Assembly: GCF_947499565.1 (NCBI RefSeq)
Contig: NZ_CANMOV010000006.1
Source: an uncultured Croceitalea sp.
Lineage (GTDB): Bacteria > Bacteroidota > Bacteroidia > Flavobacteriales > Flavobacteriaceae
Reading direction: 5' to 3' (one strand)
DNA length: 64,000 nt
In this document: piece after piece, positions 39,123 to 56,296 of the stretch
Position numbering within the stretch: position 1 is the first letter of the stretch
How the letters are laid out: every line of letters begins with the position of its first letter
Translations under genes and position numbers: made by a program
The notes under the pieces: generated by a model
What the model was told of the DNA's origin: nothing
The model's database searches: none
Seen by the model: the letters and a program-made list of their open reading frames with translations, nothing else

Positions 39123-41189
39123 CTAATACTCCAAAAGCGCTATAAGTTTATTTTTTATCTTCTCTGTAGAAGGAATCATTGTAGTTTCCAAGGTTGAATT
39201 TAATGGTATTGCCGGTAAGTTCTCACTACCAATAGTCATTACTGGAGCATCTAAATAGGTAAAACATTCTTCTTGTATTTTGCCTGCCAATGCTCTAGCA
39301 AAACTATTGTTGGAAGGTTCTTCCGTAACTACTAAACATTTCCCTGTTTTTTTAACCGATGTCATTACAGTAGCCTCATCCAATGGTGCTAAAGTTCTTA
39401 AATCGATTACCTCAACTTTACTGCGCAACCCTTTTGAAGCATTCATAGCCCAATGCACACCCATCCCATAACTTACAATGGTTACGGTTTCTTCATTCTC
39501 TTGTTTCCATATTTCCTGTAAGACATTAGCTTTCCCAAAAGGCAAAACGTAATCTTCTGATGGTTCTATTGAAGTTGCACCTTTTGTTCCTGGTACTTTA
39601 CTCCAGTACAAGCCTTTATGCTCTAAAATAACTACCGGATTGGGATCATAATATGCTGCTTTAAGCAAGCCCTTAAGGTCAGCTCCATTGCTTGGGTAAG
39701 CAATTTTAATGCCTCTTATATTGGTAATCACACTTTCTACGGACGAAGAGTGGTAAGGCCCTCCACTGCCATAAGCGCCAATTGGGACTCTTAAAATCAT
39801 ACTAACTGGCCATTTTCCATTGGACAGATAGCAGCTTCTACTTACTTCTGTAAAGAGCTGATTCAGCCCTGGCCAGATATAGTCTGCAAACTGCACTTCT
39901 ACAATGGGTTTGAGTCCTACAGCACTCATCCCAACTGTTGAACCTACAATAAAAGCTTCTTGGATTGGTGTATTAAATACCCTATCATCCCCAAACTTTT
40001 GTGCTAAGGTTGCTGCTTCTCTAAAAACACCGCCTAACCTGCCACCAACATCTTGACCATATAAAAGACATTCCTTGTGTTTTTTCATCAGCTCTTCCAC
40101 GGCAAATAAAGCACAGTCTACCATTACAACTTTTTCTCCATCCACACGCGCTGGGGAGCGCTCTCCAAGTTCTTCCACTATAGGGGTAGGCGCCAAATCA
40201 TGGGTAAACAAATCTTCAGGCCCTGGATCTTGGGCCTGCAAAGCTTTTTCAAAATCGGTTTTTACCTTCTGTTCTGCCTCTGACTCGATATTTTTGATTT
40301 CATCCTCGGTAAAACCATTATCTAAAAGTTGCTGCTTTAATACTGGATATGGATCTCTAGAACGTGCTTCTTCCAAATCGTCTCGATACCATTCCATCCG
40401 AACTCCTGAAGTATGGTGATTTAACAACGGAACTTTAGCATGCACCAAAAATGGTCGTCGTTCTTTTCGGATTGTCTTAATTACTTTTTCCAGGGCTTCA
40501 TAACTTTCTATAAAATTGGCACCATCTATAGAAATAGCTTCCAATCCTTTAAAGCCCTGAGCATATTCATACGCGTTTTGAGCTCTAGTTTCTGCTTCAT
40601 TTGCAGAAATGTCCCAACCATTATCTTGTACTAAATATAGAATAGGCATTTGCTTTAGCGCTGCCATTTGAAAAGCTTCCGCTATTTCACCCTCAGTAAC
40701 CGATGCATCTCCTAAGGAGCATATGGTAATAGGGTTTTCTTTGGAACTACTACTTTTAGTGATAGGATTTTCTAAACCTTGCTTTTCTAGATACTGCATT
40801 CCCATAGCAACACCGGTAGCTGGAATAGTCTGCATTCCAGTTGCTGAAGATTGGTGTGGGATTTTCGGTTTATCATCATCTTTTAAGCTAGGATGCGAAT
40901 AATAAGTTCTTCCTCCAGAGAAGGGGTCTTCTTTTTTGGCTAATAGCTGCAGCATTAAATCATAAGGTTGCATCCCTATTGCAAGCAACATCGCATCATC
41001 CCTATAATACGGAAAGGCATAATCTTGCGGCAGCAATTGCATCCCTAAAGCAATCTGTATGGCTTCATGTCCTCTAGACGTAGCATGCACATATTTGGAG
41101 ACTGTTTTAAAATTCTCCTCGTACAATAGTGTCATCGCCTTGGCAGTGCAAAGTTTGTTAAAACCTATTTTTAATGCTTGTTTCTTCAT
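39123..41189 (-). CDS. 2-oxoacid dehydrogenase E1, fused alpha+beta (branched-chain/aromatic type)
   Basis: TPP motif GDASVTEGE...DN; YGQDVG, FNTPIQE, EVQFADY and HSSS motifs. Confidence 0.93.
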   Translation of the reverse strand: MKKQALKIGFNKLCTAKAMTLLYEENFKTVSKYVHATSRGHEAIQIALGMQLLPQDYAFPYYRDDAMLLAIGMQPYDLMLQLLAKKEDPFSGGRTYYSHPSLKDDDKPKIPHQSSATGMQTIPATGVAMGMQYLEKQGLENPITKSSSSKENPITICSLGDASVTEGEIAEAFQMAALKQMPILYLVQDNGWDISANEAETRAQNAYEYAQGFKGLEAISIDGANFIESYEALEKVIKTIRKERRPFLVHAKVPLLNHHTSGVRMEWYRDDLEEARSRDPYPVLKQQLLDNGFTEDEIKNIESEAEQKVKTDFEKALQAQDPGPEDLFTHDLAPTPIVEELGERSPARVDGEKVVMVDCALFAVEELMKKHKECLLYGQDVGGRLGGVFREAATLAQKFGDDRVFNTPIQEAFIVGSTVGMSAVGLKPIVEVQFADYIWPGLNQLFTEVSRSCYLSNGKWPVSMILRVPIGAYGSGGPYHSSSVESVITNIRGIKIAYPSNGADLKGLLKAAYYDPNPVVILEHKGLYWSKVPGTKGATSIEPSEDYVLPFGKANVLQEIWKQENEETVTIVSYGMGVHWAMNASKGLRSKVEVIDLRTLAPLDEATVMTSVKKTGKCLVVTEEPSNNSFARALAGKIQEECFTYLDAPVMTIGSENLPAIPLNSTLETTMIPSTEKIKNKLIALLEY

Positions 41190-41218
41190 ATTAATTTCCC
41201 AAGAAGTAGGAATCTTTT

Positions 41219-42283
41219 TTAAGCTGTTTCTTTTTCTATTGCCACCATCCAGTTATGTGTATCTGAATATTCCCCTGAACGAATTCCATTTATTTTATCT
41301 AGTACTAACTGTCCTACTTTATTCCCTTTAGTCAGAGTAATAGTCTGGTTTTTATAACCTATTTCATTAATCATGGCGATACCGACAGCCGTTCCTGTGC
41401 CAAAAGCTTCCTCCAAAGTACCCTCTTTTGATGCTCTTAAAAGTTCGTTTATGGTAATTGGATTTTCGTTTACTTGATATCCTTCAGCTTTTAGCAATTC
41501 TATTACACTCTTTCTAGTAATGCCATCTAATATAGCACCGTCTAGGCTTGGGGTATAGAACGTTCCTTTTATCTTAAAAAAGATATTCATTGTTCCAACC
41601 TCTTGAATATAGTTGAAGTCTTTACCATCTAACCACAAAACCTGATTATACCCTTTTTCTTTGGCCAGTTCAGTAGGTCTAATGGCTGCTGCATAATTTC
41701 CTGCTGCTTTTGCCTCTCCTGTTCCCCCTTCAATTGCTCGTATGTATTTAGTCTCCGCATACAATCTTATAGGTTTAGAGAAGAAAGGTCCTGCAGGCGA
41801 GGCCATAATGATAAATTTGTATTTGGTAGAGGCGCGCATTCCAATAAAAGCCTCATCTGCATACATAAAAGGCCTAAGGTAAAGTGCACTTCCTTTTTGG
41901 GGTGGAATCCAGTTTTCTTCTAGCGCTACCAGTTTTTCTAAACCTTCTACAAACAAGTCTTCAGGAAATTCTGGCATCCCCATGCGCCTAGCACTAAAAT
42001 TTAAGCGCGCAGCATTTAATGTTGGTCTAAACAATAAAGGAGTCCCATTTATATGTTTAGTGGCTTTCATACCCTCAAAAATTGCCTGTCCATAATGCAA
42101 TGCCATTGCTGCTGGATGCGTAGGAATTAAAGCCAAAGGTTCTATTCTTGGATTTAACCATTCTCCATTTTCATAATCACAAATAAACATATGATCCGTA
42201 AATGTGGTCCCAAGAGGGATGTTGTTAAAATCCAACAAATCCACTTTAGATGTAGTGGTTTTAGTAATTGAAATATGCCTCAT
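41219..42283 (-). CDS. ilvE: Class IV (branched-chain/aromatic) amino-acid aminotransferase
   Basis: LHYGQAIFEGMKA, GEAKAAGNYA, EVGTMN, ILDGITR and EAFGTGTA motifs; 1-nt overlap with E2. Confidence 0.9.
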   Translation of the reverse strand: MRHISITKTTTSKVDLLDFNNIPLGTTFTDHMFICDYENGEWLNPRIEPLALIPTHPAAMALHYGQAIFEGMKATKHINGTPLLFRPTLNAARLNFSARRMGMPEFPEDLFVEGLEKLVALEENWIPPQKGSALYLRPFMYADEAFIGMRASTKYKFIIMASPAGPFFSKPIRLYAETKYIRAIEGGTGEAKAAGNYAAAIRPTELAKEKGYNQVLWLDGKDFNYIQEVGTMNIFFKIKGTFYTPSLDGAILDGITRKSVIELLKAEGYQVNENPITINELLRASKEGTLEEAFGTGTAVGIAMINEIGYKNQTITLTKGNKVGQLVLDKINGIRSGEYSDTHNWMVAIEKETA

Positions 42284-43587
42284 TAAATTGTTCTATTAGT
42301 ATCAAACTTTTCTAAATAATCTCCCACTCTTCTTAAAAATGAACCCCCCAAATAACCATCCACAACCCTATGATCAAAAGAAAGCGATAAGTACATCATG
42401 CTACGGATAGCTATTTCGTCACCTTTTTCCGTGGTTAGTACTTCTGCTCTTTTTTTGATGATGCCCAGTGCAAGTATGGCAACTTCAGGTTGATTAATAA
42501 TAGGTGTCCCCATTAAACTCCCAAAAGTGCCTACGTTAGAAATGGTAAAAGTGCTTCCCTTAATATCATCTCCACTTAATGTATTCTCCCTGGCTTTTGC
42601 TGCCAGTTTATTTACCTCTGAAGCAAGTTCTTTAAGGTTCTTTTGATTTGCATTTTTTACAACAGGAACAATTAGATTGCCACTTGGTAAAGCTGTAGCC
42701 ATACCAATGTTAATGTCTTCTTTAACAATGATGTTGTTCCCATCAACAGAAACATTAATCATGGGAAAATCCTTAACTGCCTTTGAAACAGCTTCTACAA
42801 ATAATGGTGTAAAGGTTAATCGTTCTCCATATTTTTCCTGGAACTTTTCCTTATTGTCATTTCTCCAATTTACCATATCCGTAAGGTCTGCTTCTACATA
42901 TGCTGTCACATGCGGCGATGTGTGTTTGGAATACACCATATGGTCCGCAATCATTTGGCGCATTCGGTCCATCTCAACAATCTTACCAGTGCCTTTATCT
43001 AGATTTAGTTGCGGAATTCTGTATGCCGTTGGATCAGGTTCTGCCACTGGTTGTACAAATTGGTATGGCCTGCCTTCATTAATATAGTTGAATAAATCGC
43101 TCTTCTTAAGACGGCCATCAGCTCCCGTAGCCGGGATTCTAGCCAACTCTTCATAACTAACATGTTGTTCTTTGGCAATTCCGACAATTAAAGGAGAGTA
43201 AAATGTATTATTTCGTATCGCATTGGAAGTTGCAACAGACTTTACTTTCTTAGTTTTTAATCTTTGTTTAGATGTTGTCTCTTTTGAAATCTGAGCATCG
43301 GATGTTTTCTCCTCTTTAGCAACGCTGCTGCCCTCCGCAACTTCTCCATCTAGTTCTAAAATAGCAATGACCTCTCCTACTTGTACTACATCTTTTGGAT
43401 TAAACAAGGTTTTAACCAAAACACCGGAGGCATTAGCAGGCACTTCGTTATCAACTTTATCGGTAGCAACTTCCAAAAGAATATCACCTTCTTTAAAAGA
43501 ATCACCTTCTTTAACAATCCAATCAATGATTGTTCCCTCCGTAATGCTTTCGCCCATTCTGGGCATTTTTAGTTCCAGCTTCGACAT
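42283..43587 (-). CDS. 2-oxoacid dehydrogenase E2 (dihydrolipoamide acyltransferase)
   Basis: Lipoyl motif EVATDKVDNEV; E3-binding TGADGRLKKSD; catalytic FDHRVVDG. Confidence 0.95.
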   Translation of the reverse strand: MSKLELKMPRMGESITEGTIIDWIVKEGDSFKEGDILLEVATDKVDNEVPANASGVLVKTLFNPKDVVQVGEVIAILELDGEVAEGSSVAKEEKTSDAQISKETTSKQRLKTKKVKSVATSNAIRNNTFYSPLIVGIAKEQHVSYEELARIPATGADGRLKKSDLFNYINEGRPYQFVQPVAEPDPTAYRIPQLNLDKGTGKIVEMDRMRQMIADHMVYSKHTSPHVTAYVEADLTDMVNWRNDNKEKFQEKYGERLTFTPLFVEAVSKAVKDFPMINVSVDGNNIIVKEDINIGMATALPSGNLIVPVVKNANQKNLKELASEVNKLAAKARENTLSGDDIKGSTFTISNVGTFGSLMGTPIINQPEVAILALGIIKKRAEVLTTEKGDEIAIRSMMYLSLSFDHRVVDGYLGGSFLRRVGDYLEKFDTNRTI

Positions 43588-43592
43588 TAGTT

Positions 43593-43610
43593 AACTAGCG
43601 TTTGTTAGTT
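43593..43610. promoter_or_regulatory. PaaR-like operator copy 2, upstream of E2-aminotransferase-E1
   Basis: AACTAGCGTTTGTTAGTT, 16/18 identical to the palindrome at 55685; 5 nt from the E2 start codon. Confidence 0.65.
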
Positions 43611-43647
43611 TATACATTGTATCTTCTTTTTTAAAGAATATCTCGTC

Positions 43648-44244
43648 TTACTTATTCATGAAATCCCTAAGGGTATCATACAAAGCTTCTTGCTTTTTTC
43701 TATCTTCCGGAACTTCTCTCAGAGGTTCTACTGGTTTTAGACTCTCGTGACATTCTGCCGGCAACTTCTGATACAATTGCGTTCCTTTAGTTTTCCAGGC
43801 AATCATATCATCGCTAACTTGTTTTATTACTTTAGCGGGATTCCCAACAACCAAACTACGTTTAGGTATTTTAGTTCCTGCTTTTACGAAAGCCATTGCT
43901 CCTACGATACTCTCATCGCTAATTTCTGCATCATCCATAATTACAGTATTCATCCCCACCAATACATTACGTCCAATATTGGCGCCATGAATAATAGCTC
44001 CATGACCTATATGCGCACTTTCTTTTAAGGTTATAGATTTTCCAGGAAACATATGTACCGTGCAATTTTCTTGTACATTAACGCCATCCTCTAAAACAAT
44101 CTGTCCCCAATCTCCCCTTATAGCAGCTCCTGGTCCTATATAACAGTCTTTTCCAATGATTACATTACCGGTTATAGCAGCCAAAGGATGCACAAAACTA
44201 CTTTCATGTATTACAGGTATGTATCCTTTAAAACTGTATACCAT
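43648..44244 (-). CDS. paaY: PaaY gamma-carbonic-anhydrase-like hexapeptide protein
   Basis: IRGDWG, NVQENCTVH and IGHGAIIHG motifs; paa cluster context. Confidence 0.85.
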   Translation of the reverse strand: MVYSFKGYIPVIHESSFVHPLAAITGNVIIGKDCYIGPGAAIRGDWGQIVLEDGVNVQENCTVHMFPGKSITLKESAHIGHGAIIHGANIGRNVLVGMNTVIMDDAEISDESIVGAMAFVKAGTKIPKRSLVVGNPAKVIKQVSDDMIAWKTKGTQLYQKLPAECHESLKPVEPLREVPEDRKKQEALYDTLRDFMNK

Positions 44245-44246
44245 TA

Positions 44247-44999
44247 CTAATTATATCTTTTCAAGGTTTCTTTGGTAAAATCACTTAAAACTAAGGTTCC
44301 ACTAATGACAGCACGTTCCATAAGTAAAGTATCCCAATCCTCTGTACCTTTCCAAAACATCGCTTTCATTTTAGACATTGCTTCTGGATTGTAGGTACAT
44401 AAGTTTTTAGCAAATGCCAATACCTCTTTATCTAAAGTTGCTGTATCCTCAAAAACTTTAGTAAAAAGCCCCTTATCTCTTGCCCATTCTGCTGGGTAAA
44501 ATGAGTTGGCATCAATAGCAATTTGAGACATTCCACTTAGTCCCAGTTTCCTTTCAACCGCTGGCCCTACTACAAAGGGGCCAATACCAATATTTAACTC
44601 GCTCAATTTTATAGCAGCAAATTTTGTTGCCATGCAATAATCTGTTGCAGAGGCTAATCCAACACCACCACCAACAGTTTTTCCTTGCACTCTACCGATA
44701 ATAAATTTTGGACACTTTCGCATCGCATTAATAACATTAGCAAAGCCTGAAAAAAAGGTTTTACCTGTTTCTGCATCATTAATCGCAACAAGTTCTTTAA
44801 AGCTGGCTCCTGCGCAAAAAGTCCTGTCTCCGCCGCTTTTTAAAACGATTACTTTTATAGCATCATCTTTTCCAGCATTCGTAATTGTTTGCGCTAATTC
44901 TGCCAGAATATCCCCTGGAAGTGAATTATGGGCTGGATGAAAAAATTCTATAAATCCTATCTGTTCCTCAACAGTTAATGTAACATAAGGTGCTGTCAT
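44247..44999 (-). CDS. Enoyl-CoA hydratase/isomerase (possibly the PaaF-equivalent)
   Basis: FCAGASF and GGGVGLASATD crotonase motifs; ATG at 44999. Confidence 0.85.
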   Translation of the reverse strand: MTAPYVTLTVEEQIGFIEFFHPAHNSLPGDILAELAQTITNAGKDDAIKVIVLKSGGDRTFCAGASFKELVAINDAETGKTFFSGFANVINAMRKCPKFIIGRVQGKTVGGGVGLASATDYCMATKFAAIKLSELNIGIGPFVVGPAVERKLGLSGMSQIAIDANSFYPAEWARDKGLFTKVFEDTATLDKEVLAFAKNLCTYNPEAMSKMKAMFWKGTEDWDTLLMERAVISGTLVLSDFTKETLKRYN

Positions 45000-45008
45000 C
45001 ACGCTTTT

Positions 45009-45032
45009 GTGTTCCCGAGTAATCGGGAATCT
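45009..45032 (+). repeat. Family F REP hairpin downstream of GIY-YIG-2
   Basis: GTG-TTCCCGA-gtaa-TCGGGAA-TCT. Confidence 0.8.
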
Positions 45033-45044
45033 ATTTTAAGATTA

Positions 45045-45332
45045 TTATTTCAAAATTTCATATAAATCCGTCCAATCGGGATTCGTTTTTTCTATTAATT
45101 CAATTTTCCAAGCCCTGTTCCATTTCTTCATTTGTTTCTCTTTCAATCTAGCTTCTCCTTCTGTTTTAAATTGTTCAAAGTAAACTACTTTATCCAAATT
45201 ATACCTCGCCGAGAATGTTGTTGGATGAGCTTTAGTTTTATGTTGATATATTCTTGTTTTTAATCTTTTAGTTTTTCCGATATATAGAACACCCCGCTTT
45301 TTATTTGTAATTATGTAAACATAGTGTTTCAA
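45045..45332 (-). CDS. Small stand-alone GIY-YIG nuclease (GIY-YIG_unchar_3-like), copy 2
   Basis: YVY...LYIGKT..LKTRIYQH, KEKQMKKWNRAWKIELIEKTNPDW; TTG start; inserted inside the paa cluster. Confidence 0.92.
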   Translation of the reverse strand: MKHYVYIITNKKRGVLYIGKTKRLKTRIYQHKTKAHPTTFSARYNLDKVVYFEQFKTEGEARLKEKQMKKWNRAWKIELIEKTNPDWTDLYEILK

Positions 45333-45354
45333 AATTTCAATTCTTATTTTAAAC

Positions 45355-45378
45355 GGCTCCCGATGACTCGGGAGTCAC
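45355..45378 (-). repeat. Family F REP hairpin upstream of GIY-YIG-2, inverted relative to 45009
   Basis: The minus strand reads GTGA-CTCCCGA-gtca-TCGGGAG-CC. Confidence 0.8.
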
Positions 45379-45396
45379 CTTGAACAATTCAGTTTG

Positions 45397-47895
45397 TTAT
45401 AGCAAATTGAATTGTTCAAAATGATGATTTAAATGCTTTCGCTCCAATAGCGCCCATTCATATCTATTTAAGAATCCAAAGACAGGGTTTTTTGTTCTTT
45501 CTTCTGGATTTGCATTAAAAAATTCTAAATATTGCTCTCTAGCCTCTAACATCCTTTCTTTTGCTATAGTCAAATTCTCATGCTTGGGGTTATTTATATC
45601 TGATTTTTCAGCTAGGGGAAAATCATAATCATGCGGCATCTTATCATAATTATATAAGGTAGCGTGCACTTTTTCTATAATTTTCTCTGGTGTAGAAATT
45701 TTAAAATCTTGAATTTCTCCTGAAGCAATTCGATAACTATATTCCAAGTGTTCTACCAAGCATTGCGCACTAATATTCCCCCATGTAGGTGTAGTTTTTT
45801 CATCAAGTTTAGCAAAACACTCCTTAATTTTAGTTTCGGTCATTTCTACAAAAGTTTCTTGTTTCTTTTGAACCATGGTGAGGATTGTTGCAATAGCAAC
45901 CAACTCATCTTCTGTGTCAAAAACCTCAACAAACCATTTTACGATACCGCTTGGATGTTCTGCTCCCGCAACATCTCGATCTACTTTTTGCTTACAGGTT
46001 AGTCTTACATAAATGGTATCGTTATGGTAAAGCGGTCTTAGGAAACGACACTCTTCTAAGCCATAGTTTGCAGCAACCGGTCCTTTATTTGGATAAACAA
46101 ATAATCCCGCCGCAGCTGAAATGATAAAATATCCATGCGCGGTACGCTTTTCAAATATGCTCCCATCTAAGGACGTTATATCGGTATGAGCATAAAAATG
46201 GTCCCATGTAACATTTGCAAAGTTGATGATGTCGGTATCGGTCAACGTACGTTTATGTGTTTTTAAGGACATTCCTGCTTCAATATCTTCCCAATGATAT
46301 TTGAACGGGTGTTGTGCCGCTTCTTTATATTTTGCATTGGCCTGATATATTCCGGTAATCTCCGTTAAAGTTGTTGGGGTTCCTTGGATAGCTGTACGTT
46401 GCAAATAATGTTTTATACCACGCATACCACCCATTTCTTCTCCTCCTCCTGCTCTACCTGGGCCTCCATGGACTAGATTAGGCAATGGAGAACCATGTCC
46501 TGTACTTTCCTTGGCGTTTTCTCTATTTAAAACCAAAATACGGCCATGATGACTTGCTGCATTTACTACATATTCCTTAGCAATCTTATCATCAAAAGTG
46601 GTGATTGACGACACTAAAGAACCTTTACCCATTTGTGCCAAAGTAATAGCCTCACCCAAATTCTTATAAGGCATAATGGTACTAACAGGACCAAAAGCTT
46701 CACGCTCGTGGATAATTGTATTCTGAAAAGGATGGTCCGCCCGTAATAAAATTGGGCTAATAAATGCTCCTTTTTTAGCGTCTGCTCCAATAGTTTCAAT
46801 CTTATCTAAATCACCGTAAACTATTTCTGCTTCTTTTGCTAAATCGTTTACAGAATCTCGTACCGCCTGTACCTGTTGTTGACTTACCAAAGAACCCATT
46901 CTTACTTCTTTTAATCTTGGATCTCCAATAGTTACTTTGTCCAATGCCTTTCCAAGAGCAATCTGCACATCCTCAACAAGATTTTCAGGAACTATAATTC
47001 GTCTTATAGCTGTACATTTTTGTCCGGCTTTCACCGTCATCTCCTTTCGCACTTCCTTTACGAACAAATCAAATTCGGGAGTCCCAGGAACTGCATCTTG
47101 TCCTAAAATAGAAGCATTTAAAGAATCTGCTTCCATAGTAAAAGGCACTGCTTCTTCAATCAAACGCGGATGTGCTTTTAACAAACGTCCTGTTGTTGCA
47201 GAACCAGTAAATGTTACCACATCTTGCGATGTTACCGTATCGAGTATCGTTTTAACCGTTCCATTAATAATCTGTAAAGCACCTTCTGGTAAAATGCCTG
47301 AATTTATTATTTCTCTAGCTACTGCTTCTGCTAAATACGAAGAAGACGGTGCAGGTAACACCACAGCTGGCATTCCTGCCATCCAATTGACAGCACATTT
47401 CTCTAACATACCCCAAACAGGAAAGTTAAAGGCGTTAATATGGACAGCTACTCCTTTTTTAGGTACCATAATGTGATGTGCCATAAATCTGCCTCCCCTA
47501 GATAAATCTATAGGGTCTCCTTCCACATGAAACGGTTGATTTGGAAACAGCTTACGCAAAGATGCATTGGCAAAAAGATTACCAAAACCACCTTCTATAT
47601 CAATCCAACTATCTACTCTGGTAGCTCCAGTCCTGTAACTTAAGTCATAAAATGCTTCCTTTCTTTTATTTAAGTAAAGTGCTAGTTTCTTAAGCATATT
47701 ACCTCTTTCTTGGAAAGTCATTTTGCGAAGAACAGCTCCTCCTTTATTTCTTCCATATTCTAAGGTTTCCGGAATATCTAAACCTTCAATAGCGATACTG
47801 GTAAAAGCTTCTCCTGTTACGGCATCAAGAACTGGTGTTCCTTCTTCTTTACCTTCTACCCATTGCCCTTTTATATAATGTGGTACTTTTTTCAT
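45397..47895 (-). CDS. paaZ: PaaZ (ALDH plus MaoC hydratase) with an extra C-terminal DinB/DUF1569-like domain
   Basis: [30 protein letters not shown] and RTAHGYF motifs; extension [13 protein letters not shown]...HLNHHFEQF; ATG 47895. Confidence 0.93.
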
Positions 47896-47897
47896 AA

Positions 47898-49103
47898 TCA
47901 CACTCTTTCTATAATCGCAGCATAGCCTTGTCCTACACCTATGCACATTGTAACTAAAGCGTACTTTTTTTGTTGTTCATGTAATTCCAAAGCGGCGGAA
48001 TATGCAATTCTAGCACCCGTTACACCTAAAGGATGACCTATAGCTACAGAACCGCCATTTGGATTCAATCTCGGGTCATTATCCGCCAATCCCCATGCCC
48101 GAGTACAAGCCAATGCTTGGGCAGCAAATGCTTCGTTCAATTCTATGACATCCATATCTTCCATGGTCAATCCAGCTTTTGCCAATGCCTTATTAGAGGC
48201 TTCAACAGGACCAATACCCATTATCCTTGGTTCCACACCTACCACTGCAGAACTTACTATTCTTGCCAAGGGTTTAAGATTGTATTTTTTAATGGCATCT
48301 TCAGATGCTATAATGGTTGCCGCAGCGCCATCATTTAATCCAGAAGAATTTCCTGCAGTTACACTACCTCCTTCTTTTTTAAATGCTGGACGCAGTTTTG
48401 CTAAAATCGCTTTTGTTGTTGTTGGTTTTACAAATTCATCTTTAGAAAATAGGATAGGATCTTTTTTACGCTGTGGAATTTCAACAGTGACAATCTCCTT
48501 AGCCAAACGCCCATTTTCTTGAGCTTTAGTAGCTTTCATTTGACTCCAATATGCAAATGCGTCTTGGTCTTCTCGAGAGATGTTATATTTTTCTACTAAA
48601 TTTTCGGCAGTATTTCCCATACCGTCTGTTCCGTAGAGTTTTTGCATTTTAGGGTTGATAAAACGCCATCCAAAGGTAGAATCGTACATTTTGGAATCTC
48701 CACCAAATCCCGTAGATGGTTTTGCAATAACATAAGGGCCTCTAGTCATATTCTCTACTCCACCGGCTATAAAAACATCTCCGTCACCGGCCTTAATAGC
48801 TCGGTTTGCATGAATCATAGCAGATAAGCCCGAACTGCATAATCGGTTCACAGTTTCTCCAGGAACTGTAAAGGGTAATCCAGCTAAAAGTGATGCCATA
48901 CGCCCTACATTGCGGTTATCTTCACCTGCCTGGTTTGCGCAACCCATAATTACATCATCATAAGCTTCTTTAGGAATATTTGGATTACGAGCTACTACCT
49001 CTTTAATTACCAATGCTCCCAAATCATCCGTTCTTACAGCAGACAAGGTTCCTTTATAGTTGCCTATTGGTGTTCTAATACCGTCTATTATATATGCTTC
49101 CAT
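47898..49103 (-). CDS. pcaF: 3-oxoadipyl-CoA / 3-oxo-5,6-dehydrosuberyl-CoA thiolase (PcaF/PaaJ)
   Basis: NRLCSSG, GNSSGLNDGA, ELNEAFA, AIGHPLG and CIGVGQG motifs. Confidence 0.92.
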   Translation of the reverse strand: MEAYIIDGIRTPIGNYKGTLSAVRTDDLGALVIKEVVARNPNIPKEAYDDVIMGCANQAGEDNRNVGRMASLLAGLPFTVPGETVNRLCSSGLSAMIHANRAIKAGDGDVFIAGGVENMTRGPYVIAKPSTGFGGDSKMYDSTFGWRFINPKMQKLYGTDGMGNTAENLVEKYNISREDQDAFAYWSQMKATKAQENGRLAKEIVTVEIPQRKKDPILFSKDEFVKPTTTKAILAKLRPAFKKEGGSVTAGNSSGLNDGAAATIIASEDAIKKYNLKPLARIVSSAVVGVEPRIMGIGPVEASNKALAKAGLTMEDMDVIELNEAFAAQALACTRAWGLADNDPRLNPNGGSVAIGHPLGVTGARIAYSAALELHEQQKKYALVTMCIGVGQGYAAIIERV

Positions 49104-49111
49104 TCAAAATA

Positions 49112-49184
49112 TAAAAGTTGAAATGTAAAAGTTGAAATGTAAAAGTTGATTTTAATACCTTGCATTTCTATAATTTTACATTTA
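49112..49184. repeat. Short tandem and inverted repeats downstream of the four-helix-bundle gene
   Basis: TAAAAGTTGAAATG x2.7 (49112-49149), then an imperfect inverse CATTTCTATAATTTTACATTTA (49163-49184). Confidence 0.7.
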
Positions 49185-49556
49185 TTATTTTTCGATTCTT
49201 TTATTTGTTGTTTTAATACTTGAGGTGAAAATAGCGACCAGCTCATTACATTCTTTAATGATTAATTCAAAAACCTCTTTATTCTCTACTAAATTTGATT
49301 TTTCAAGAATTTGTAAATTAACTTGTGACTCTCGCAATTCTTTTAAACATATTTTCATTTTATGAATAAAATCTCTTTTTGATTCAGCGCCTTGGGCTTC
49401 TCCATAATTTAGAGCAGATGAAGTTACAGAACGAATTAATTGTTTTATTAAGTGCTCTGTTGCAAAGCCTTTCTTCAAAATAGAAACATTGGAAATAATT
49501 AATGCCGAAAACACTACTAATCTCTCTTGCAGATTATATTTGGAATTACTTTTCAA
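49185..49556 (-). CDS. Four-helix-bundle protein (23S rRNA IVP / TIGR02436-like)
   Basis: QLIRSVTSSALNYGEAQGAESKRDFIHKMKICLKELRES signature. Confidence 0.9.
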   Translation of the reverse strand: MKSNSKYNLQERLVVFSALIISNVSILKKGFATEHLIKQLIRSVTSSALNYGEAQGAESKRDFIHKMKICLKELRESQVNLQILEKSNLVENKEVFELIIKECNELVAIFTSSIKTTNKRIEK

Positions 49557-49587
49557 TTTATTATTTTAAATTTTTCAGTTTTAACTT

Positions 49588-49995
49588 TCATTTTTCCCAA
49601 TCCTTTTGAGTTCTATAAACCACACCTTTAAAAAGTGCCACTAATTCTTCCTTACGTTTAACTTCTATAATATTGAAACCCAATTTATTATTTACTTTTT
49701 CTATTACCGATTCCGCTACCAACTCATCACCTTCATTTAATGCTTCAATATGATTGATGCTTGTTTCTATTGAAACCGCATATTTACCATGCGTATTCGC
49801 GGCAAATCCAAAAGCCGTATCTGCTAATGCATAGCTGATTCCTCCATGGGCTTTGCCCATACTATTTAGCATTTCTTTTCTTACCGTCATCCCAACTTTA
49901 CACCGCCCTATTTCACATTCCAAAATTTCAATACCCAACCAACTGCTATAAGGGTCTTGAGATAACATCTTATATGGAATAGTTTCTCCTTTCAT
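49588..49995 (-). CDS. paaI: PaaI hotdog thioesterase
   Basis: NSMGKAHGGISYALADTAFG motif; true start ATG 49995. The ORF-track extension runs through a repeat. Confidence 0.9.
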   Translation of the reverse strand: MKGETIPYKMLSQDPYSSWLGIEILECEIGRCKVGMTVRKEMLNSMGKAHGGISYALADTAFGFAANTHGKYAVSIETSINHIEALNEGDELVAESVIEKVNNKLGFNIIEVKRKEELVALFKGVVYRTQKDWEK

Positions 49996-50007
49996 AATAT
50001 ATTCATC

Positions 50008-50086
50008 GTCATTTCGAGTGATTTTTGAAAAAAAATTATATCGAGAACTCTCGTTTGTTCCCGATACGCTTTGCACTCGAACAGAC
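50008..50086. repeat. Family B REP doublet between paaH and paaI
   Basis: GTCATTTCGAGTG...TATCGAGAAC-spacer-GTTCCCGATAC...CACTCGAACAGAC. Confidence 0.82.
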
Positions 50087-50087
50087 G

Positions 50088-51245
50088 CTAGTTAAAAAAT
50101 TTCTTTTTTCCTCTATTCATCTTACGCAATAACGGACTGCAGCGATATCTATCTTCATGGTATTCATTGTATAGTTCGTCCAATTGCGAAACACACCAAT
50201 CAATTCCTTTTTCATCTGCCCATGCCAATAAGCCTTTTGGATAATTCACCCCTTTAGTCATGGCATTATCTATGTCTTCTGCTGATGCTATCTTTAAAAA
50301 TAAAGCATCCGCTGCTTCATTAATTAACATTACTAAAACACGATTAAATATTTTTTCCGCTAATGCTTTATCCTCTATGGGATTCGGTTTTGATGCACCT
50401 TCCGAATAATCGTAATAGCCTCTTCCAGATTTGCGCCCTAAATATCCTGCTTCTGAAAAACGTTTTTGCGTAAATGCTGGCTTATATCTTGCATCGAAAT
50501 AAAATGCCGTGAATACAGTTTCGGTCACCGTATAATTCACATCGTTTCCTATAAAATCCATCAATTCAAATGGTCCCATTCTAAAACCACCTAAGGTTTT
50601 TAAACTCCAATCAATCGTTGCAAAATCTGCAATACCTTCCTCATAAACACGTAAAGCTTCTCCATAAAAAGGTCTCGCTACTCGATTAACAATAAAACCA
50701 GGGGTGTCTTTAGCAACAGCCACTACTTTTTTCCAATCTGAAATCGTTTGAATTGCCTTATCTAAAACTTCTTTTGATGTTTGTATTGCAGGAATTACCT
50801 CCACCAATTTCATTAACGGTGCAGGGTTAAAAAAATGAATTCCAACACAACGTTCTGGTTTTTTAAGAGATGCAGCTATTGATGCTATGGATAAACTTGA
50901 AGTGTTTGAAGCGATGATACAATCATCAGAAACATAAGCCTCTATTTCTGAAAACAATTTCTGTTTGATATTCAAATTTTCAACAATAGCTTCAATGGTT
51001 AAATTAGAATCACCTAAGTCTTTAAGGCTATCTACATAAGAGATATTTGCTTGAATTCTATTTTTTTCATTGGCATCAATTCGTCCTTTTTCAATAAGAC
51101 GATTTAATATTTTTCCAAGATTGGTTTTAGCGTTATTTAAAGCCTCTTGACTTGTATCGTATAATTTAACCTTACAATCTGCAGTAGCTGCAACTTGCGC
51201 AATTCCACTGCCCATTGTACCAGAGCCTATAATCCCAACATTCAT
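50088..51245 (-). CDS. paaH: 3-hydroxyadipyl-CoA dehydrogenase
   Basis: GSGTMGSGIA, ASNTSSL, HFFNP, PGFIVNR and MGPFELMD motifs. Confidence 0.9.
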   Translation of the reverse strand: MNVGIIGSGTMGSGIAQVAATADCKVKLYDTSQEALNNAKTNLGKILNRLIEKGRIDANEKNRIQANISYVDSLKDLGDSNLTIEAIVENLNIKQKLFSEIEAYVSDDCIIASNTSSLSIASIAASLKKPERCVGIHFFNPAPLMKLVEVIPAIQTSKEVLDKAIQTISDWKKVVAVAKDTPGFIVNRVARPFYGEALRVYEEGIADFATIDWSLKTLGGFRMGPFELMDFIGNDVNYTVTETVFTAFYFDARYKPAFTQKRFSEAGYLGRKSGRGYYDYSEGASKPNPIEDKALAEKIFNRVLVMLINEAADALFLKIASAEDIDNAMTKGVNYPKGLLAWADEKGIDWCVSQLDELYNEYHEDRYRCSPLLRKMNRGKKKFFN

Positions 51246-52022
51246 TTATTCTCCTTTAAAATTTGGTTTGCGTTTTTCAATAAAAGCTGAGACTCCTTCA
51301 TTATAATCTTTGCTTTCAGAAGCTTCTATTTGATATTTTGATTCTAAGATTAATTGTCCTTCCAAATCATTACCTAAAGACGCGTTCAATGCTTTTTTAA
51401 TTAGACCTAAAGCTTTGGTCGGCATTTTGCCCACTTTAATTGCAAGATTTCTCACATATTCGTCAAAATCGTTAGAAGCTACTGCCTTATATATCATACC
51501 CATTTTTTCAGCTTCCTCAGCTGAAATCTTATCTCCTAACATTGCTAGTGCGCTTGCTTTTTGAAAACCTATTAGTCTAGGCAAGAAAAAAGTTCCTCCA
51601 CTATCTGGAATCAACCCTATCTTACTAAAAGCCTGAATAAAGCTAGCATTAGTATTCGCAACTACAATATCACAAGCTAAAGCAATATTTGCACCTGCAC
51701 CTGCTGCAACTCCATTAACAGCAGCTATTATAGGTTTCTCTATTTTTCTGACACGTCTAATTATAGGGTTATAGTGTTCTTCCAGAATATTTTTAAATCC
51801 CGGATTCTCTTCGGGATTGGTTACTTCTTTTAGGTCTTGCCCAGCACAGAAAGCCTTCCCATTTCCTGTTAAAACTATAGCTCTTACCTGTGAATTAGTT
51901 TCGCATTCATCTAAGGTATTTTGAAGCTTAAGTGCCATTTCTCTATTAAAACTATTGAAAACTTCGGGCCTATTTAAAGCTATGTATGCTACTCCTTCTT
52001 CAATTTGTACTGCTATCGACAT
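51246..52022 (-). CDS. paaG: Ring 1,2-epoxyphenylacetyl-CoA isomerase
   Basis: AFCAGQDL, GAGANIALACD and GLIPDSGG motifs. Confidence 0.88.
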   Translation of the reverse strand: MSIAVQIEEGVAYIALNRPEVFNSFNREMALKLQNTLDECETNSQVRAIVLTGNGKAFCAGQDLKEVTNPEENPGFKNILEEHYNPIIRRVRKIEKPIIAAVNGVAAGAGANIALACDIVVANTNASFIQAFSKIGLIPDSGGTFFLPRLIGFQKASALAMLGDKISAEEAEKMGMIYKAVASNDFDEYVRNLAIKVGKMPTKALGLIKKALNASLGNDLEGQLILESKYQIEASESKDYNEGVSAFIEKRKPNFKGE

Positions 52023-52026
52023 AGTA

Positions 52027-52527
52027 TTATTTTAAGCATTTGAAATAATCGAACGGTTCTAGGCATTCGTTACATTGAAACTGTGCTTTACATGCTGTTG
52101 AACCAAACTGACTCACCATTCTTGTATTTTTGGAACCACAGTTGGTACATTTTACCAATTGCTTACCTCCCAGTAAAACACTTTTATCTGCCTCCTCATC
52201 TAGCGGAGCTGCAATACCGTATTCTTCTAACATTCTTCTGCCTTTTGGCGTAATCCAATCCGTAGTCCACGCTGGGGCTAATATTAGCTCTACCTCCGAC
52301 TTATAATTAGCTTCGAAAAGTGCTTTTTTAATATCATCTCCAATTACATCCATAGCAGGACATCCACTATATGTTGGAGTAATCTGTATTAAAGCAATAC
52401 CTTCTTCTATTATAGCAGAACGCACCACTCCCATATCCATAATAGATAATACTGGTATCTCTGGATCTGATACTTTTTCCAATATTAGACTTAAGCGTTC
52501 ATCAATATTTTGTGCTGTAGCTACCAT
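52027..52527 (-). CDS. paaD: Phenylacetyl-CoA epoxidase subunit D
   Basis: DPEIP, TPTYSGCPA, WTTDW, CTNC...FGSTACKA and CLEPFDYFK motifs. Confidence 0.93.
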   Translation of the reverse strand: MVATAQNIDERLSLILEKVSDPEIPVLSIMDMGVVRSAIIEEGIALIQITPTYSGCPAMDVIGDDIKKALFEANYKSEVELILAPAWTTDWITPKGRRMLEEYGIAAPLDEEADKSVLLGGKQLVKCTNCGSKNTRMVSQFGSTACKAQFQCNECLEPFDYFKCLK

Positions 52528-52574
52528 AATAACTAGTCATAAACTTGAAAGACTCCAGTCCTTACAAGAATTTA

Positions 52575-53330
52575 TTACCATTCCATATTTGGATAGGTAC
52601 GTTGCATAAATTGCATATCATTTAACAAGTAACCCATATGCTCCGTATGTATGCCTTCTTTACCTCCTTTTTGAAACCACTTGGAATCCGGAATAACAAT
52701 ATTAGCCTCAGTAAGAAGTGTATTTACTATCTTATAATACTTAGATTTAAGCACTGTAACATCAACTCCAATACCTTCTTTCACCATAGCCTTATCTGCA
52801 TCTGTTAGGTGAAATAACTCATCTGTATACGTCCAAAGATTATCTACAGCTTCTTGTACTTTTAAATTGCTTTCTTTAGTACCATCACCTAGACGTTTTA
52901 CCCAATCCGATGAAAATCGTCTATGATAACTTACCTCTTTAATACTTTTCTTCGCAATTGCAACTAAAGTGATATCATGGCTCTTCTGTAATTCTTCTAA
53001 AAAGAGATTATTATAGATATCAAATAAAAATTGCCGAACAATTGTATAAGCAAAATCAGTGTTTGGTTGCTCTACCAAAAGAACGTTTACATATTCTTTC
53101 TCTTTTCTTAAAAAAGCAATGCTATCTTCTGTTACATTATCTCCTTTTAATTTTGAAGCATATTGATAATAACTTCGCACTTGACCTAATAAATCTAAAG
53201 AGATATTAGTACATGCAATATCTGTTTCCAGACTTGGTCCATGACCGCAAAGTTCCCCTAAACGCTGTCCTAGAATAAGGTTATTATCCGCTATACCAAG
53301 AATATAATTATATAGGTTTTCGTTTTTCAT
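52575..53330 (-). CDS. paaC: Phenylacetyl-CoA epoxidase subunit C
   Basis: LGQRLGELCGHGPSLETD, KEVSYH and HTEHMG motifs. Confidence 0.95.
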   Translation of the reverse strand: MKNENLYNYILGIADNNLILGQRLGELCGHGPSLETDIACTNISLDLLGQVRSYYQYASKLKGDNVTEDSIAFLRKEKEYVNVLLVEQPNTDFAYTIVRQFLFDIYNNLFLEELQKSHDITLVAIAKKSIKEVSYHRRFSSDWVKRLGDGTKESNLKVQEAVDNLWTYTDELFHLTDADKAMVKEGIGVDVTVLKSKYYKIVNTLLTEANIVIPDSKWFQKGGKEGIHTEHMGYLLNDMQFMQRTYPNMEW

Positions 53331-53614
53331 TACATATGCTTTACATCATCAGGCAAGTCATAAAAAGTAGGGTGTCTGTACACCTTATCTTGCGCTGGCT
53401 CAAACAACTCTCCATTATTCTCAGGATTGGAGGCAGTAATATGTCTAGATTCTACTACCCAGATACTTACTCCTTCATTTCTTCTTGTATATACATCACG
53501 TGCATTTTCTAGAGCCATAGCTTCATCTGCAGCATGTAAGCTTCCAAAATGACGGTGCTCTAAACCATTTTTACTCCGAACAAAAACTTCCCAAAGTGGC
53601 CAATTCTTTTTCAT
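53330..53614 (-). CDS. paaB: Phenylacetyl-CoA epoxidase subunit B
   Basis: WEVF...HFGSLHA...ARDVYTRR.EGVSIWVV...YRHPTFY. Confidence 0.96.
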   Translation of the reverse strand: MKKNWPLWEVFVRSKNGLEHRHFGSLHAADEAMALENARDVYTRRNEGVSIWVVESRHITASNPENNGELFEPAQDKVYRHPTFYDLPDDVKHM

Positions 53615-53615
53615 C

Positions 53616-54572
53616 TTAAACTACTTTTTCTATTTTTTTATTAGACTGCTTTTCCGCATATGCCATGGCGGCATCGCGAACCCAAGCACCTTTTTCCCAT
53701 GCGCCTTTTCTTGCATTTAGACGTTCTTTATTACAAGGGCCATGACCTTTTACAACTTGCCAAAACTCATCCCACTGAATTTCACCAAAATTATAATGTC
53801 CAGTTTCTTCATTCCATTTTAAATCTGTATCGGGAATTTTTAAGCCAAGAATATCTGCTTGTGGCACTGTTTGATCTATAAATTGCTGTCGTAATTCGTC
53901 ATTTGTTTTACGCTTTAGCTTCCATTTCATGGATTGCTCCGTATGCACAGATTCCGCATCTGTTGGCCCTAACATCATTAAAGATGGCCACCACCATCTA
54001 TTTAATGCATCTTGTGCCATTTCTTTTTGCTCAGGAGTGCCATTACACAACTTATACATAATCTCAAACCCTTGTCTTTGATGAAAACTTTCTTCCTTAC
54101 AAACACGAACCATAGCTCTAGCATAAGGTCCAAAAGAAGTACTACAAAGTGGCACTTGATTAATAATTGCAGCACCATCTACCAACCAACCAATAGCTCC
54201 CATATCTGCCCATGTAAGCGTAGGGTAGTTAAAAATACTAGAGTATTTAGCTTTTCCAGAGTGTAATTGTTCATACAATTCGTCTCTTGAAACTCCTAAG
54301 GTTTCACAAGCACTATATAAATACAATCCATGTCCTGCTTCATCTTGCACTTTTGCCAACAAGGCGACTTTTCTTCTTAAAGAAGGTGCTCTAGTAATCC
54401 AGTTCCCCTCAGGAAGCATCCCTACAATCTCTGAGTGGGCATGCTGAGAAATTTGCCGAATATGAGTCTTTCGGTATTTTTCTGGCATCCAATCTTTAGG
54501 TTCAATTTTTTCATCACGTGCAATACGCGCATCAAAATCTGCTTCTAAACTCTTTATCTGTTCTTCACTCAT
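53616..54572 (-). CDS. paaA: Phenylacetyl-CoA epoxidase subunit A
   Basis: [25 protein letters not shown] and KEESFH di-iron motifs. Confidence 0.97.
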
Positions 54573-54594
54573 AGCTTATGTTATTTGCGAATTG

Positions 54595-55668
54595 TTAAAC
54601 ATCAAAATCAACTTTAACCGCATTACTGGTAGGAACGGCCTGGCAACTAAGTACTAGGTTTTTTGCAACTTCATCTTCTTCTAATGCATAATTAACCTTC
54701 ATTTCTACAGAACCTTCTACTATTCTACATTTACAGGTGCTACATACTCCCCCTTTACATGCAAATGGTAAATCTGCTCCAGCAGCCAAGGCACCATCAA
54801 GAATAGTATCAAAATCATCATCCATGACAAAATGGAATTCTTTGCCCGCATCTATAATAGTAACTTCTGTTCCTTCAACTTTTTGTTCAAGAGCCGCTGC
54901 AATTTGTATTTCTGAAGCTTCAGTAGTCCCCGTAAAAAACAGTTCAAAATGAATCTTTTCTTTTGCTAAACCAGCTTCTTGTAAAGTATCCCTTATTAAA
55001 AAAACCATTTCTTGTGGACCACATAAAAAACAGTTTGAAGTATCTTCTATATCAATAAAAGTTTTTGTTAGTATGGCCAACTTTTCCTGATCAAATCTGC
55101 CGTTTAAAAAAGGGATATCCCGCTTTTCTTTAGTTAAAAAGTAAAATACCTGGAAACGTCCAAAAAACTGATTCTTAAGCCTTTCTATTTCTTCTTTAAA
55201 GATAATGGATTTAACCGTTCTATTTAGATAGAATAGTTTAAAGGTACTTTCTGGCTCTTTAGCTAGATGCGTTTTTATTATAGAAAGTATAGGAGTTATT
55301 CCACTTCCTGCTGCAAAAGCAATATGGTTTTTTGCTTTATTTTCTTCAACGTCTACATAAAACTTACCAGCAGGAGGCATTACTTCTATACTATCACCAT
55401 GCTCCAACACCTCATTCGCATAAGTAGAAAAAATTCCACCAGGAATCCGTTTAATAGCTACCTTCCATTTATTTTCCAACGGACTAGAACAAAGGGAATA
55501 TGATCTTCTAACTTCTTCTCCGCGTATTTTTTTACGTAAGGTTAAATATTGACCCTGCTTAAATGAAAATTTATCATGTAAATTCTCTGGAATTGCAAAA
55601 GAGACCACACTGCAATCTTTAGTCTCTTTATAAACCTCAGCGATTTTGACTTCGTAAAAATTAGACAT
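54595..55668 (-). CDS. paaE: Phenylacetyl-CoA epoxidase reductase subunit
   Basis: RRSYSLCS FAD motif, AAGSGITP, and 2Fe-2S motif ACKGGVCSTC...C. Confidence 0.94.
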   Translation of the reverse strand: MSNFYEVKIAEVYKETKDCSVVSFAIPENLHDKFSFKQGQYLTLRKKIRGEEVRRSYSLCSSPLENKWKVAIKRIPGGIFSTYANEVLEHGDSIEVMPPAGKFYVDVEENKAKNHIAFAAGSGITPILSIIKTHLAKEPESTFKLFYLNRTVKSIIFKEEIERLKNQFFGRFQVFYFLTKEKRDIPFLNGRFDQEKLAILTKTFIDIEDTSNCFLCGPQEMVFLIRDTLQEAGLAKEKIHFELFFTGTTEASEIQIAAALEQKVEGTEVTIIDAGKEFHFVMDDDFDTILDGALAAGADLPFACKGGVCSTCKCRIVEGSVEMKVNYALEEDEVAKNLVLSCQAVPTSNAVKVDFDV

Positions 55669-55684
55669 ATAAAACTAATTAACT

Positions 55685-55702
55685 AACTAACGATTGTTAG
55701 TT
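55685..55702. promoter_or_regulatory. PaaR-like operator copy 1, upstream of paaE
   Basis: Palindrome AACTAAC-GATT-GTTAGTT; its core CTAACGATTGTTAG has one mismatch to the CNAACGNNCGTTNG consensus recalled for Thermus PaaR. Confidence 0.75.
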
Positions 55703-55709
55703 TAATAAA

Positions 55710-55717
55710 CAAAGCTA
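55710..55717 (-). promoter_or_regulatory. Bacteroidetes sigma-A -7 element for the paa operon
   Basis: TAGCTTTG (TAnnTTTG) on the minus strand, 7 nt upstream of the operator. Confidence 0.6.
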
Positions 55718-55726
55718 CAAAAAAAA

Positions 55727-56296
55727 TTATATTGCTATCCCGTTTATTAACACTTTACTGAGTTCTTTAGCGAGTTTTTCCGGATTAAGATCTTCCTTTT
55801 TAGGAATCCATAAATACAGTGACCTTAAAGTAGAAAGTACAGAAAATAGAATAACATCCACGCTTACAGCTGTAATCTCCTTTTTAAAAACCCCGTCCTT
55901 TATAATAAACCGTATATCGTCTTCATAATCTAATCGTAGCTTTAAATAGTATTCTAACTTCTCTTCCAAATGCATCCAATCATTGTTTAAGGAAGCCATA
56001 CCATCCGTATTGGAGCTCGTAATTTTTATATGTAAGGCTACTATTGCCTCCATTTTCTCTAAACTAGTTGCTTGCGAATTTTTAATCTTGGTTAAACCAT
56101 TTGTAAATGCCTCAGCTAGCTTAATAATGATATCTTTTAATATATCCTGTTTAGAACTTATATGATTGTATAAACTTGCCGCTTTCATATCCATGTCCGT
56201 AGCAATATCTCTCATGGTAACCGCACTATACCCCTTTTCTTTAAATAAAGCCGCAGCCACTTTTATTATTTCTTCTTTTCGAGTCTCTTTTTTCAT
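55727..56296 (-). CDS. TetR-family regulator (PaaR-like)
   Basis: AAALFKEKGYSAVTMRDIA...AASLYNHISSK HTH; lies directly upstream of the paa operon. Confidence 0.9.
   Translation of the reverse strand: MKKETRKEEIIKVAAALFKEKGYSAVTMRDIATDMDMKAASLYNHISSKQDILKDIIIKLAEAFTNGLTKIKNSQATSLEKMEAIVALHIKITSSNTDGMASLNNDWMHLEEKLEYYLKLRLDYEDDIRFIIKDGVFKKEITAVSVDVILFSVLSTLRSLYLWIPKKEDLNPEKLAKELSKVLINGIAI

Follow-up and report, generated by a model that had tools for sequence, protein, structure and literature searches.

A candidate phenylpyruvate dehydrogenase module appended to a paaK-less paa cluster in an uncultured Croceitalea and its relatives

We analyzed a 64,000-nucleotide stretch of DNA (the window) from an uncultured Croceitalea sp., which corresponds to positions 32817-96816 of contig C6 in a 3.9-Mb genome that is 97.2% complete and has ~36% G+C. 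Its closest public relatives are Winogradskyella and other marine Flavobacteriaceae. Gene calls based on NCBIfam and Pfam profile matches placed a single paa cluster at 39123-56296, with every gene on the minus strand (Table 1). From position 56296 downward, the cluster consists of a TetR regulator gene, paaE, A, B, C, D and G, a short PaaH-like gene, a PaaI-like gene and a four-helix-bundle open reading frame (ORF), followed by a thiolase gene, paaZ, a GIY-YIG ORF, a crotonase gene and a PaaY-like gene. Appended to these is the three-gene module that is the subject of this work, encoding a dihydrolipoyl acyltransferase (E2), a class-IV aminotransferase and a fused thiamine-diphosphate-dependent E1 of the 2-oxoacid dehydrogenase type. 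The epoxidase PaaABCDE is complete, with PaaA, B, C and D above the cut-offs of their models and PaaE 1 bit short. The ring-opening and beta-oxidation-like set of PaaG, Z, J, F and H is also represented in full, PaaF by its position and crotonase fold alone. An earlier note on this DNA, made from the letters of the window, had listed paaABCDE, G, H, I, a thiolase gene, Z and Y in the cluster, and the profile matches uphold this list.

The earlier note had also described E2 and the aminotransferase as a translationally coupled pair, followed by a fused E1 on the same strand, and had placed the lipoamide dehydrogenase (E3) elsewhere in the genome. Both descriptions were borne out. The stop codon of E2 and the start codon of the aminotransferase overlap in the sequence TAATG, the gap between the aminotransferase and E1 is 29 nt, and two lipoamide dehydrogenase genes (TIGR01350, above cut-off) lie on contig C1. 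We found a lipoyl-lysine motif (TDKV, residue 43) and a catalytic DHRVVDG motif (residue 405) in E2, and the catalytic lysine motif KAAGNY at residue 192 of the aminotransferase. E1 contains an NHHTSG motif with the active-site histidine pair and a GDA...(26)...DNG variant of the thiamine-diphosphate motif (residues 160-191), which we take to be like the corresponding motif of human branched-chain 2-oxoacid dehydrogenase (BCKDH). Because these catalytic and cofactor motifs are intact, E2, the aminotransferase and E1 all look functional. No NCBIfam equivalog scored above its cut-off for the E1 or the E2 of the window.

A search for a second BCKDH set, which the earlier note had suggested as a check, was positive, and the E1/E2 of the window is not the sole BCKDH of this genome. 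Besides the components of the pyruvate and 2-oxoglutarate dehydrogenases, the genome encodes a 658-aa fused E1 (29% identity), an 803-aa fused E1, an E2 (46%) and a type-II branched-chain aminotransferase (BCAT; 42%), all as scattered single genes away from the cluster. Moreover, the 658-aa E1 paralog is found in 127/151 sampled Flavobacteriaceae genomes, independent of paaA. As judged by sequence comparison, the appended module is not the housekeeping BCKDH, because separate E1, E2 and BCAT paralogs exist elsewhere and the 658-aa E1 is widespread regardless of paa.

We found no paaK in the window, and the PaaK model TIGR02155 gave no match at E<=1e-3 across the whole genome, in agreement with the claim that the window holds no gene for a phenylacetate-CoA ligase. 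The same model, run as a control, matched in 10/14 control genomes. Four AMP-binding proteins only are encoded in the genome, all on another contig and none near the cluster. Searches of the genome found neither an indolepyruvate ferredoxin oxidoreductase (IOR) nor a biopterin-type phenylalanine hydroxylase; a homogentisate-dioxygenase-like gene is present. Other than the appended module, we recognized no route from phenylalanine or phenylacetate to phenylacetyl-CoA in this genome.

To follow the distribution of the module, we sampled one Flavobacteriaceae genome per genus, 151 in total, with orthologs defined by at least 76% identity for E1 and at least 60% for E2. The paaA gene was present in 59/151 genomes. 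All 58 genomes with an E1 ortholog and all 57 with an E2 ortholog were paaA-positive, and neither ortholog was found in any of the 92 paaA-negative genomes. A strong PaaK match was obtained in three genomes of the family only, adjoining the cluster in at least two of them, which leaves 56 of the 59 paaA-positive genera without a strong paaK. In a sample of 301 genomes from the phylum (E1 threshold, at least 57% identity), the genomes with an E1 ortholog were precisely the 32 at class level that carry paaA; these span at least eight families, PaaK was found in 4 of them, and the other 28 have no strong paaK. The presence or absence of paaA and E1 varies within several families and is always concordant. 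E1 and paaA are unlinked in many families, up to 1.4 Mb apart, and because E1 tracks paaA even at such distances, the association, as read from the genomes, is phyletic and not merely positional. In other classes, the E1 matches have 38-41% identity and show no correspondence with paaA, and we took them as other paralogs. Separately, in one family of Bacteroidota outside the class (f27), 32/49 genomes carry paaA; neither a strong PaaK nor, at E<=1e-120, an E1 was matched in this family, and this threshold may have removed weaker E1 homologs.

These counts bear on the possibility that phenylacetate is the true substrate, activated by an unlinked non-PaaK ligase or CoA-transferase, and that E1/E2 meets another paa-associated need. 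The genome does contain four AMP-binding enzymes, and paaK and E1 coexist in three genomes of the family and four at class level, hence they are not mutually exclusive. However, none of the four enzymes is encoded near the cluster or is PaaK-like at E<=1e-3, the paa pathway is without any 2-oxoacid intermediate, and ~95% of the sampled paaA-positive Flavobacteriaceae lack a strong paaK. We consider this explanation highly unlikely.

Nearly all of 80 related loci, which come from many genera, share the order paaZ-crotonase-paaY-E2-(aminotransferase)-E1. A more distant arrangement was found on a 55-kb plasmid of Saprospira grandis (NC_016936.1; L096:19297-34030), on which a TetR gene is followed by a fused E1 (69% identity), paaEABCD and the rest of the pathway, and E1 is preceded by a related palindrome. 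PaaK was not found in the examined region of this plasmid. In a search of plasmids across phyla, the only matches besides Saprospira were split BCKDH genes of ~30% identity. The paa operon of the Saprospira plasmid is complete, and the plasmid also carries purine and pyrimidine biosynthesis genes.

Two inverted repeats suggest that the module shares its control with the paa genes. An 18-bp palindrome had been noted upstream of paaE and, in a copy matching at 16/18 positions, upstream of E2; both copies were confirmed (Table 1). In the 3.9-Mb genome, no perfect copy exists apart from the site upstream of paaE, the site upstream of E2 is the single copy with one arm mismatch, and the other 23 matches to the repeat all carry two mismatches. 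Since chance alone could give roughly one such repeat per genome, what gives these two their weight is that they occupy the two 5' regions of the same cluster. By inspection of the sequence, the paaE repeat lies directly downstream of a TAnnTTTG-like element. At least 25 of 69 related loci, drawn from several genera, have the E2-side motif before the inferred start of E2, at distances that range from 4 to 77 nt and are mostly 24-25 or 72-77 nt. A scan for sigma-70 promoters and terminators returned 62 sites against 58 expected, with a model that does not cover Bacteroidota promoters.

The regulator at the head of the cluster aligned over its full length to the TetR protein 3vpr of T. thermophilus (E 2e-12), presumably a phenylacetate/fatty-acid regulator, and it shares 32% identity, again over its full length, with the TetR encoded at the head of the Saprospira paa operon. 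Two features expected of PaaR-type control were found, a TetR-fold regulator beside paa and a palindrome at the paa promoter. The regulator would bind the two related repeats as putative operators, probably repressing the paaE promoter and the E2 region, and, by analogy with known PaaR systems, phenylacetyl-CoA would probably release it. Winogradskyella-type loci have, in place of the repeat, a divergent gene for an Lrp/AsnC regulator between paaY and E2 (L012:6654-7130, minus strand), so the module there would be under an alternative control of the amino-acid type.

Together, these results make it probable, in our view, that the module feeds phenylalanine directly into phenylacetyl-CoA and that E1/E2 is the phenylpyruvate dehydrogenase of the paa pathway. 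A dedicated module of this kind, bypassing free phenylacetate, had been proposed from the window, and comparative genomics now supports it through the paralogs, the missing paaK, the co-occurrence of E1/E2 with paaA and the conserved operator. All the computational checks that the earlier note had named gave results in its favor. From family chemistry and genomic context, we propose that the class-IV aminotransferase would convert phenylalanine to phenylpyruvate, which the fused E1 would decarboxylate on thiamine diphosphate, loading the lipoyl arm of the dedicated E2 with the phenylacetyl group. E2 would then transfer this group to CoA, yielding phenylacetyl-CoA, and one of the two unlinked E3 enzymes would reoxidize the lipoamide with NAD+. 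The net reaction of E1, E2 and E3 would be phenylpyruvate + CoA + NAD+ -> phenylacetyl-CoA + CO2 + NADH, and the product would enter ring opening and degradation by PaaABCDE, G, Z, J, F and H. Such a route would need neither free phenylacetate nor the ATP-consuming ligase PaaK, with a predicted saving of two ATP equivalents relative to the route through a decarboxylase, an aldehyde dehydrogenase and PaaK. PaaI and PaaY may remove off-pathway aryl-acetyl-CoAs. To our knowledge, phenylpyruvate is the sole 2-oxoacid that gives phenylacetyl-CoA by oxidative decarboxylation. We infer from these lines the substrate specificity of E1/E2, the role of the aminotransferase and a capacity to grow on phenylalanine but not on phenylacetate.

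Several observations weigh against this assignment. The sampled genomes are related, and they are therefore non-independent samples. Beyond Flavobacteriaceae and Saprospira, E1 orthologs stand alone among unrelated neighbors, so a dedicated E2 can be claimed for Flavobacteriaceae only. A promiscuous acyl-CoA ligase acting on phenylacetate could conceivably supply phenylacetyl-CoA. Aminotransferase orthologs (63-75% identity) are present in only 31/59 paaA-positive genomes, and the gene is missing from 17 related loci that have both E2 and E1 matches. Aminotransferase orthologs also occur in three genomes without paa, E1 or E2, in which the aminotransferase is still paired with a crotonase gene (L097:8191-10067, L098:6925-8774, L099:5606-7441). 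Two of these three loci share flanks with the window, alaS in L098 and DUF4136 in L097, and because of these flanks they look like the locus of the window minus paa, paaY, E2 and E1. In one paa-less genome, the aminotransferase abuts a gene for a 586-aa protein with a biopterin-hydroxylase domain. A role as phenylalanine transaminase is plausible for this enzyme, and it is not specific; its patchy presence means that other aminotransferases must serve where it is absent.

By sequence, moreover, E1, E2 and the aminotransferase resemble ordinary members of the BCKDH and BCAT families. The aminotransferase exceeds the NCBI cut-offs for BCAT equivalogs (NF009897 and TIGR01123), which does not settle its physiological substrate; the nearest solved structures to E1 are those of branched-chain enzymes (BCKDH E1b); and public records label E1 proteins of this type with generic or branched-chain names such as '2-oxoisovalerate dehydrogenase'. 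The module could thus be an ordinary branched-chain unit, a BCAT with a BCKDH paralog, that happens to lie beside paa and makes branched acyl-CoAs for catabolism or as primers of iso-fatty acids. The survival of the crotonase-BCAT pair in the three paa-less genomes agrees with this explanation, as does the Lrp/AsnC regulator of Winogradskyella-type loci, since regulators of this family also accompany bkd operons. However, a branched-chain unit would not account for E1/E2 orthologs that, in the samples of 151 and 301 genomes, never occur without paaA and almost always occur with it. The housekeeping role is already filled by the widespread fused E1 and the separate E2, a paa-type operator-like repeat precedes E2, and in Saprospira E1 sits between TetR and paaE. 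We therefore regard a branched-chain function as quite unlikely.

The complex might also be a broader dehydrogenase of arylpyruvates and other bulky 2-oxoacids (phenylpyruvate, 4-hydroxyphenylpyruvate, indolepyruvate and the keto acid of methionine), with PaaI and PaaY clearing the dead-end aryl-acetyl-CoAs. Enzymes of the BCKDH family are promiscuous, PaaI-like and PaaY-like thioesterases are conserved beside the module, and the aminotransferase partner is variable or absent at many loci, which suggests a loose amino-acid input. Against such breadth, the strict link is to paa, which takes phenylacetyl-CoA only, and the homogentisate-dioxygenase-like gene suggests a separate route for tyrosine. 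This explanation seems unlikely to us.

Direct conversion of phenylalanine to phenylacetyl-CoA is already known, through other enzymes. It is established for Ior1 of Phaeobacter inhibens, which takes phenylalanine-derived phenylpyruvate straight to phenylacetyl-CoA with no free phenylacetate (PMC7497051). It has been suggested for PglB/PglC of Streptomyces pristinaespiralis, a pyruvate-dehydrogenase-like E1 alpha/beta pair encoded in the pristinamycin cluster and acting in L-phenylglycine formation (PMC7089894). IOR and phenylpyruvate ferredoxin oxidoreductases (PPFOR), found in Phaeobacter inhibens and gut anaerobes, belong to an unrelated family and depend on Fe-S clusters and ferredoxin, whereas the enzyme proposed here would be NAD+-linked and suited to aerobic conditions. 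PglB/PglC resemble the module in the proposed reaction only; they are biosynthetic and actinobacterial, have separate alpha and beta subunits and no dedicated E2 in their operon, and their activity is also only suggested. BCKDH, including the E1b of T. thermophilus (1UM9) and the P. putida enzyme (1QS0/2BP7), which provide the nearest structures, has the same domains, cofactor and lipoyl chemistry and likewise uses a shared E3. In contrast to BCKDH, the alpha and beta parts of the E1 in the window are fused in one 688-aa chain, and its distribution follows paa and not general metabolism.

With the canonical paa systems of E. coli and Pseudomonas putida (PaaK, and PaaX or PaaR), the cluster shares PaaABCDE, G, Z, J, H, I and Y and a TetR-type regulator with a palindrome. 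It differs from them in having no PaaK, a TetR-type regulator instead of PaaX, the appended E2, aminotransferase and E1, an extension of PaaZ and a short PaaH. Our literature search found no report or assay of a paa-linked 2-oxoacid dehydrogenase complex. PaaK is the anchor of a 2026 survey of how paa evolved, which makes no mention of such a complex and records few complete pathways in Flavobacteriia (PMC13186573).

Beyond the source genome, we lean slightly towards a general rule for the phylum, in which aerobic Bacteroidota would enter paa through an NAD+-linked, fused-E1 phenylpyruvate dehydrogenase complex and not through PaaK, and Flavobacteriaceae would have added an E2 of their own and PaaR-type control. 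If the assignment is correct, arylpyruvates would be a new class of physiological substrate for 2-oxoacid dehydrogenase complexes, and the existence of paa without PaaK in most paa-positive Bacteroidota would be explained. The 'phenylacetate' pathway of these bacteria would in effect be one for phenylalanine, with a saving of two ATP equivalents and a gain of NADH, and its testable phenotype would be growth on phenylalanine and not on phenylacetate. Pathway surveys anchored on paaK would change, and widespread annotations such as '2-oxoisovalerate dehydrogenase', or even 'tungsten formylmethanofuran dehydrogenase', would be corrected. An ATP-free route to phenylacetyl-CoA could possibly also be useful for the engineering of tropone or phenylglycine production.

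Table 1. Genes and operator-like repeats of the cluster, in window coordinates (scores in bits against model cut-offs, unless stated otherwise)
Feature	Position	Strand	Evidence or remark
TetR-family regulator, PaaR-like	55727-56296	-	TetR_N and TetR_C_24 domains
Inverted repeat AACTAAC-N4-GTTAGTT, operator-like	55685-55702		Upstream of paaE, between TetR and paaE
paaE, epoxidase reductase	54595-55668	-	TIGR02160, 419.8 bits (cut-off 420.8)
paaA	53616-54572	-	TIGR02156, 533 bits, above cut-off 280
paaB	53330-53614	-	TIGR02157, 155 bits, above cut-off 85
paaC	52575-53330	-	TIGR02158, 270.8 bits, above cut-off 133
paaD	52027-52527	-	TIGR02159, 173 bits, above cut-off 108
paaG, epoxide/oxepin isomerase	51246-52022	-	TIGR02280 best match, 327 bits, slightly below cut-off 345
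Short PaaH-like 3-hydroxyacyl-CoA dehydrogenase, 385 aa	50088-51245	-	NF006124, 513 bits, above cut-off 508; TIGR02279, 475 bits, below cut-off
paaI-like hotdog thioesterase	49588-50076	-	TIGR02286, 100 bits, below cut-off 119; TIGR00369 above cut-off
Four-helix-bundle ORF	49185-49556	-	TIGR02436, 23S rRNA-intervening-sequence protein family
3-oxoadipyl-CoA thiolase (PaaJ/PcaF)	47898-49103	-	NF006551, 606 bits, above cut-off 605
paaZ, with C-terminal extension of ~155 aa	45397-47946	-	TIGR02278, 876.7 bits, above cut-off 562.8, residues 22-694
Small GIY-YIG ORF	45045-45332	-	Between paaZ and crotonase
Crotonase-family hydratase, PaaF-like by position	44247-45002	-	ECH_1 domain; no equivalog above cut-off; position kept in related loci
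paaY-like hexapeptide-repeat protein	43648-44244	-	TIGR02287 best match, 243 bits, below cut-off 320
Second operator-like repeat, 16/18	43593-43610		6 nt before E2 start
E2 dihydrolipoyl acyltransferase	42283-43587	-	Biotin_lipoyl and 2-oxoacid_dh domains
Class-IV (IlvE type II) aminotransferase	41219-42283	-	NF009897, 378.5 bits, above cut-off 307; TIGR01123, 309.9 bits, above cut-off 250
Fused E1 alpha/beta, 688 aa, thiamine-diphosphate enzyme	39123-41189	-	E1_dh 3e-35, Transket_pyr 1e-30, Transketolase_C 4e-24 (Pfam E-values)

Phenylalanine hydroxylase had been considered as a complement to paa plus E1, an idea that we dropped, as the hydroxylase occurs in 31/59 paaA-positive and 72/92 paaA-negative genomes. 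At least 20 paaA-positive Flavobacteriaceae genera encode, at a distance of 2-3.5 kb from paaA, a ~590-aa protein with the Biopterin_H domain of aromatic amino-acid hydroxylases, for example at G092:C3:769555-770361 (paaA at C3:772491). It is also found in most paa-less genomes (an example lies at L097:6438-8198) and is absent from the source genome.

PaaZ is 849 aa long, and its C-terminal extension (45397-45860) gave only a weak DUF1569/DinB-like match (E 0.0016). The extension is missing in the Saprospira PaaZ (688 aa); judging by gene spacing at related loci, Flavobacteriaceae appear to conserve it. The short PaaH has 385 aa against ~505 positions of the model and is equal in length to the PaaH of Saprospira. 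The four-helix-bundle ORF splits paaI from the thiolase gene inside the paa operon and is present in few related loci only. A second copy of the GIY-YIG ORF, 39% identical, lies elsewhere in the window at about 25393-25662, and GIY-YIG ORFs are found at varying positions in related paa loci, fitting mobile elements of the homing-endonuclease type.

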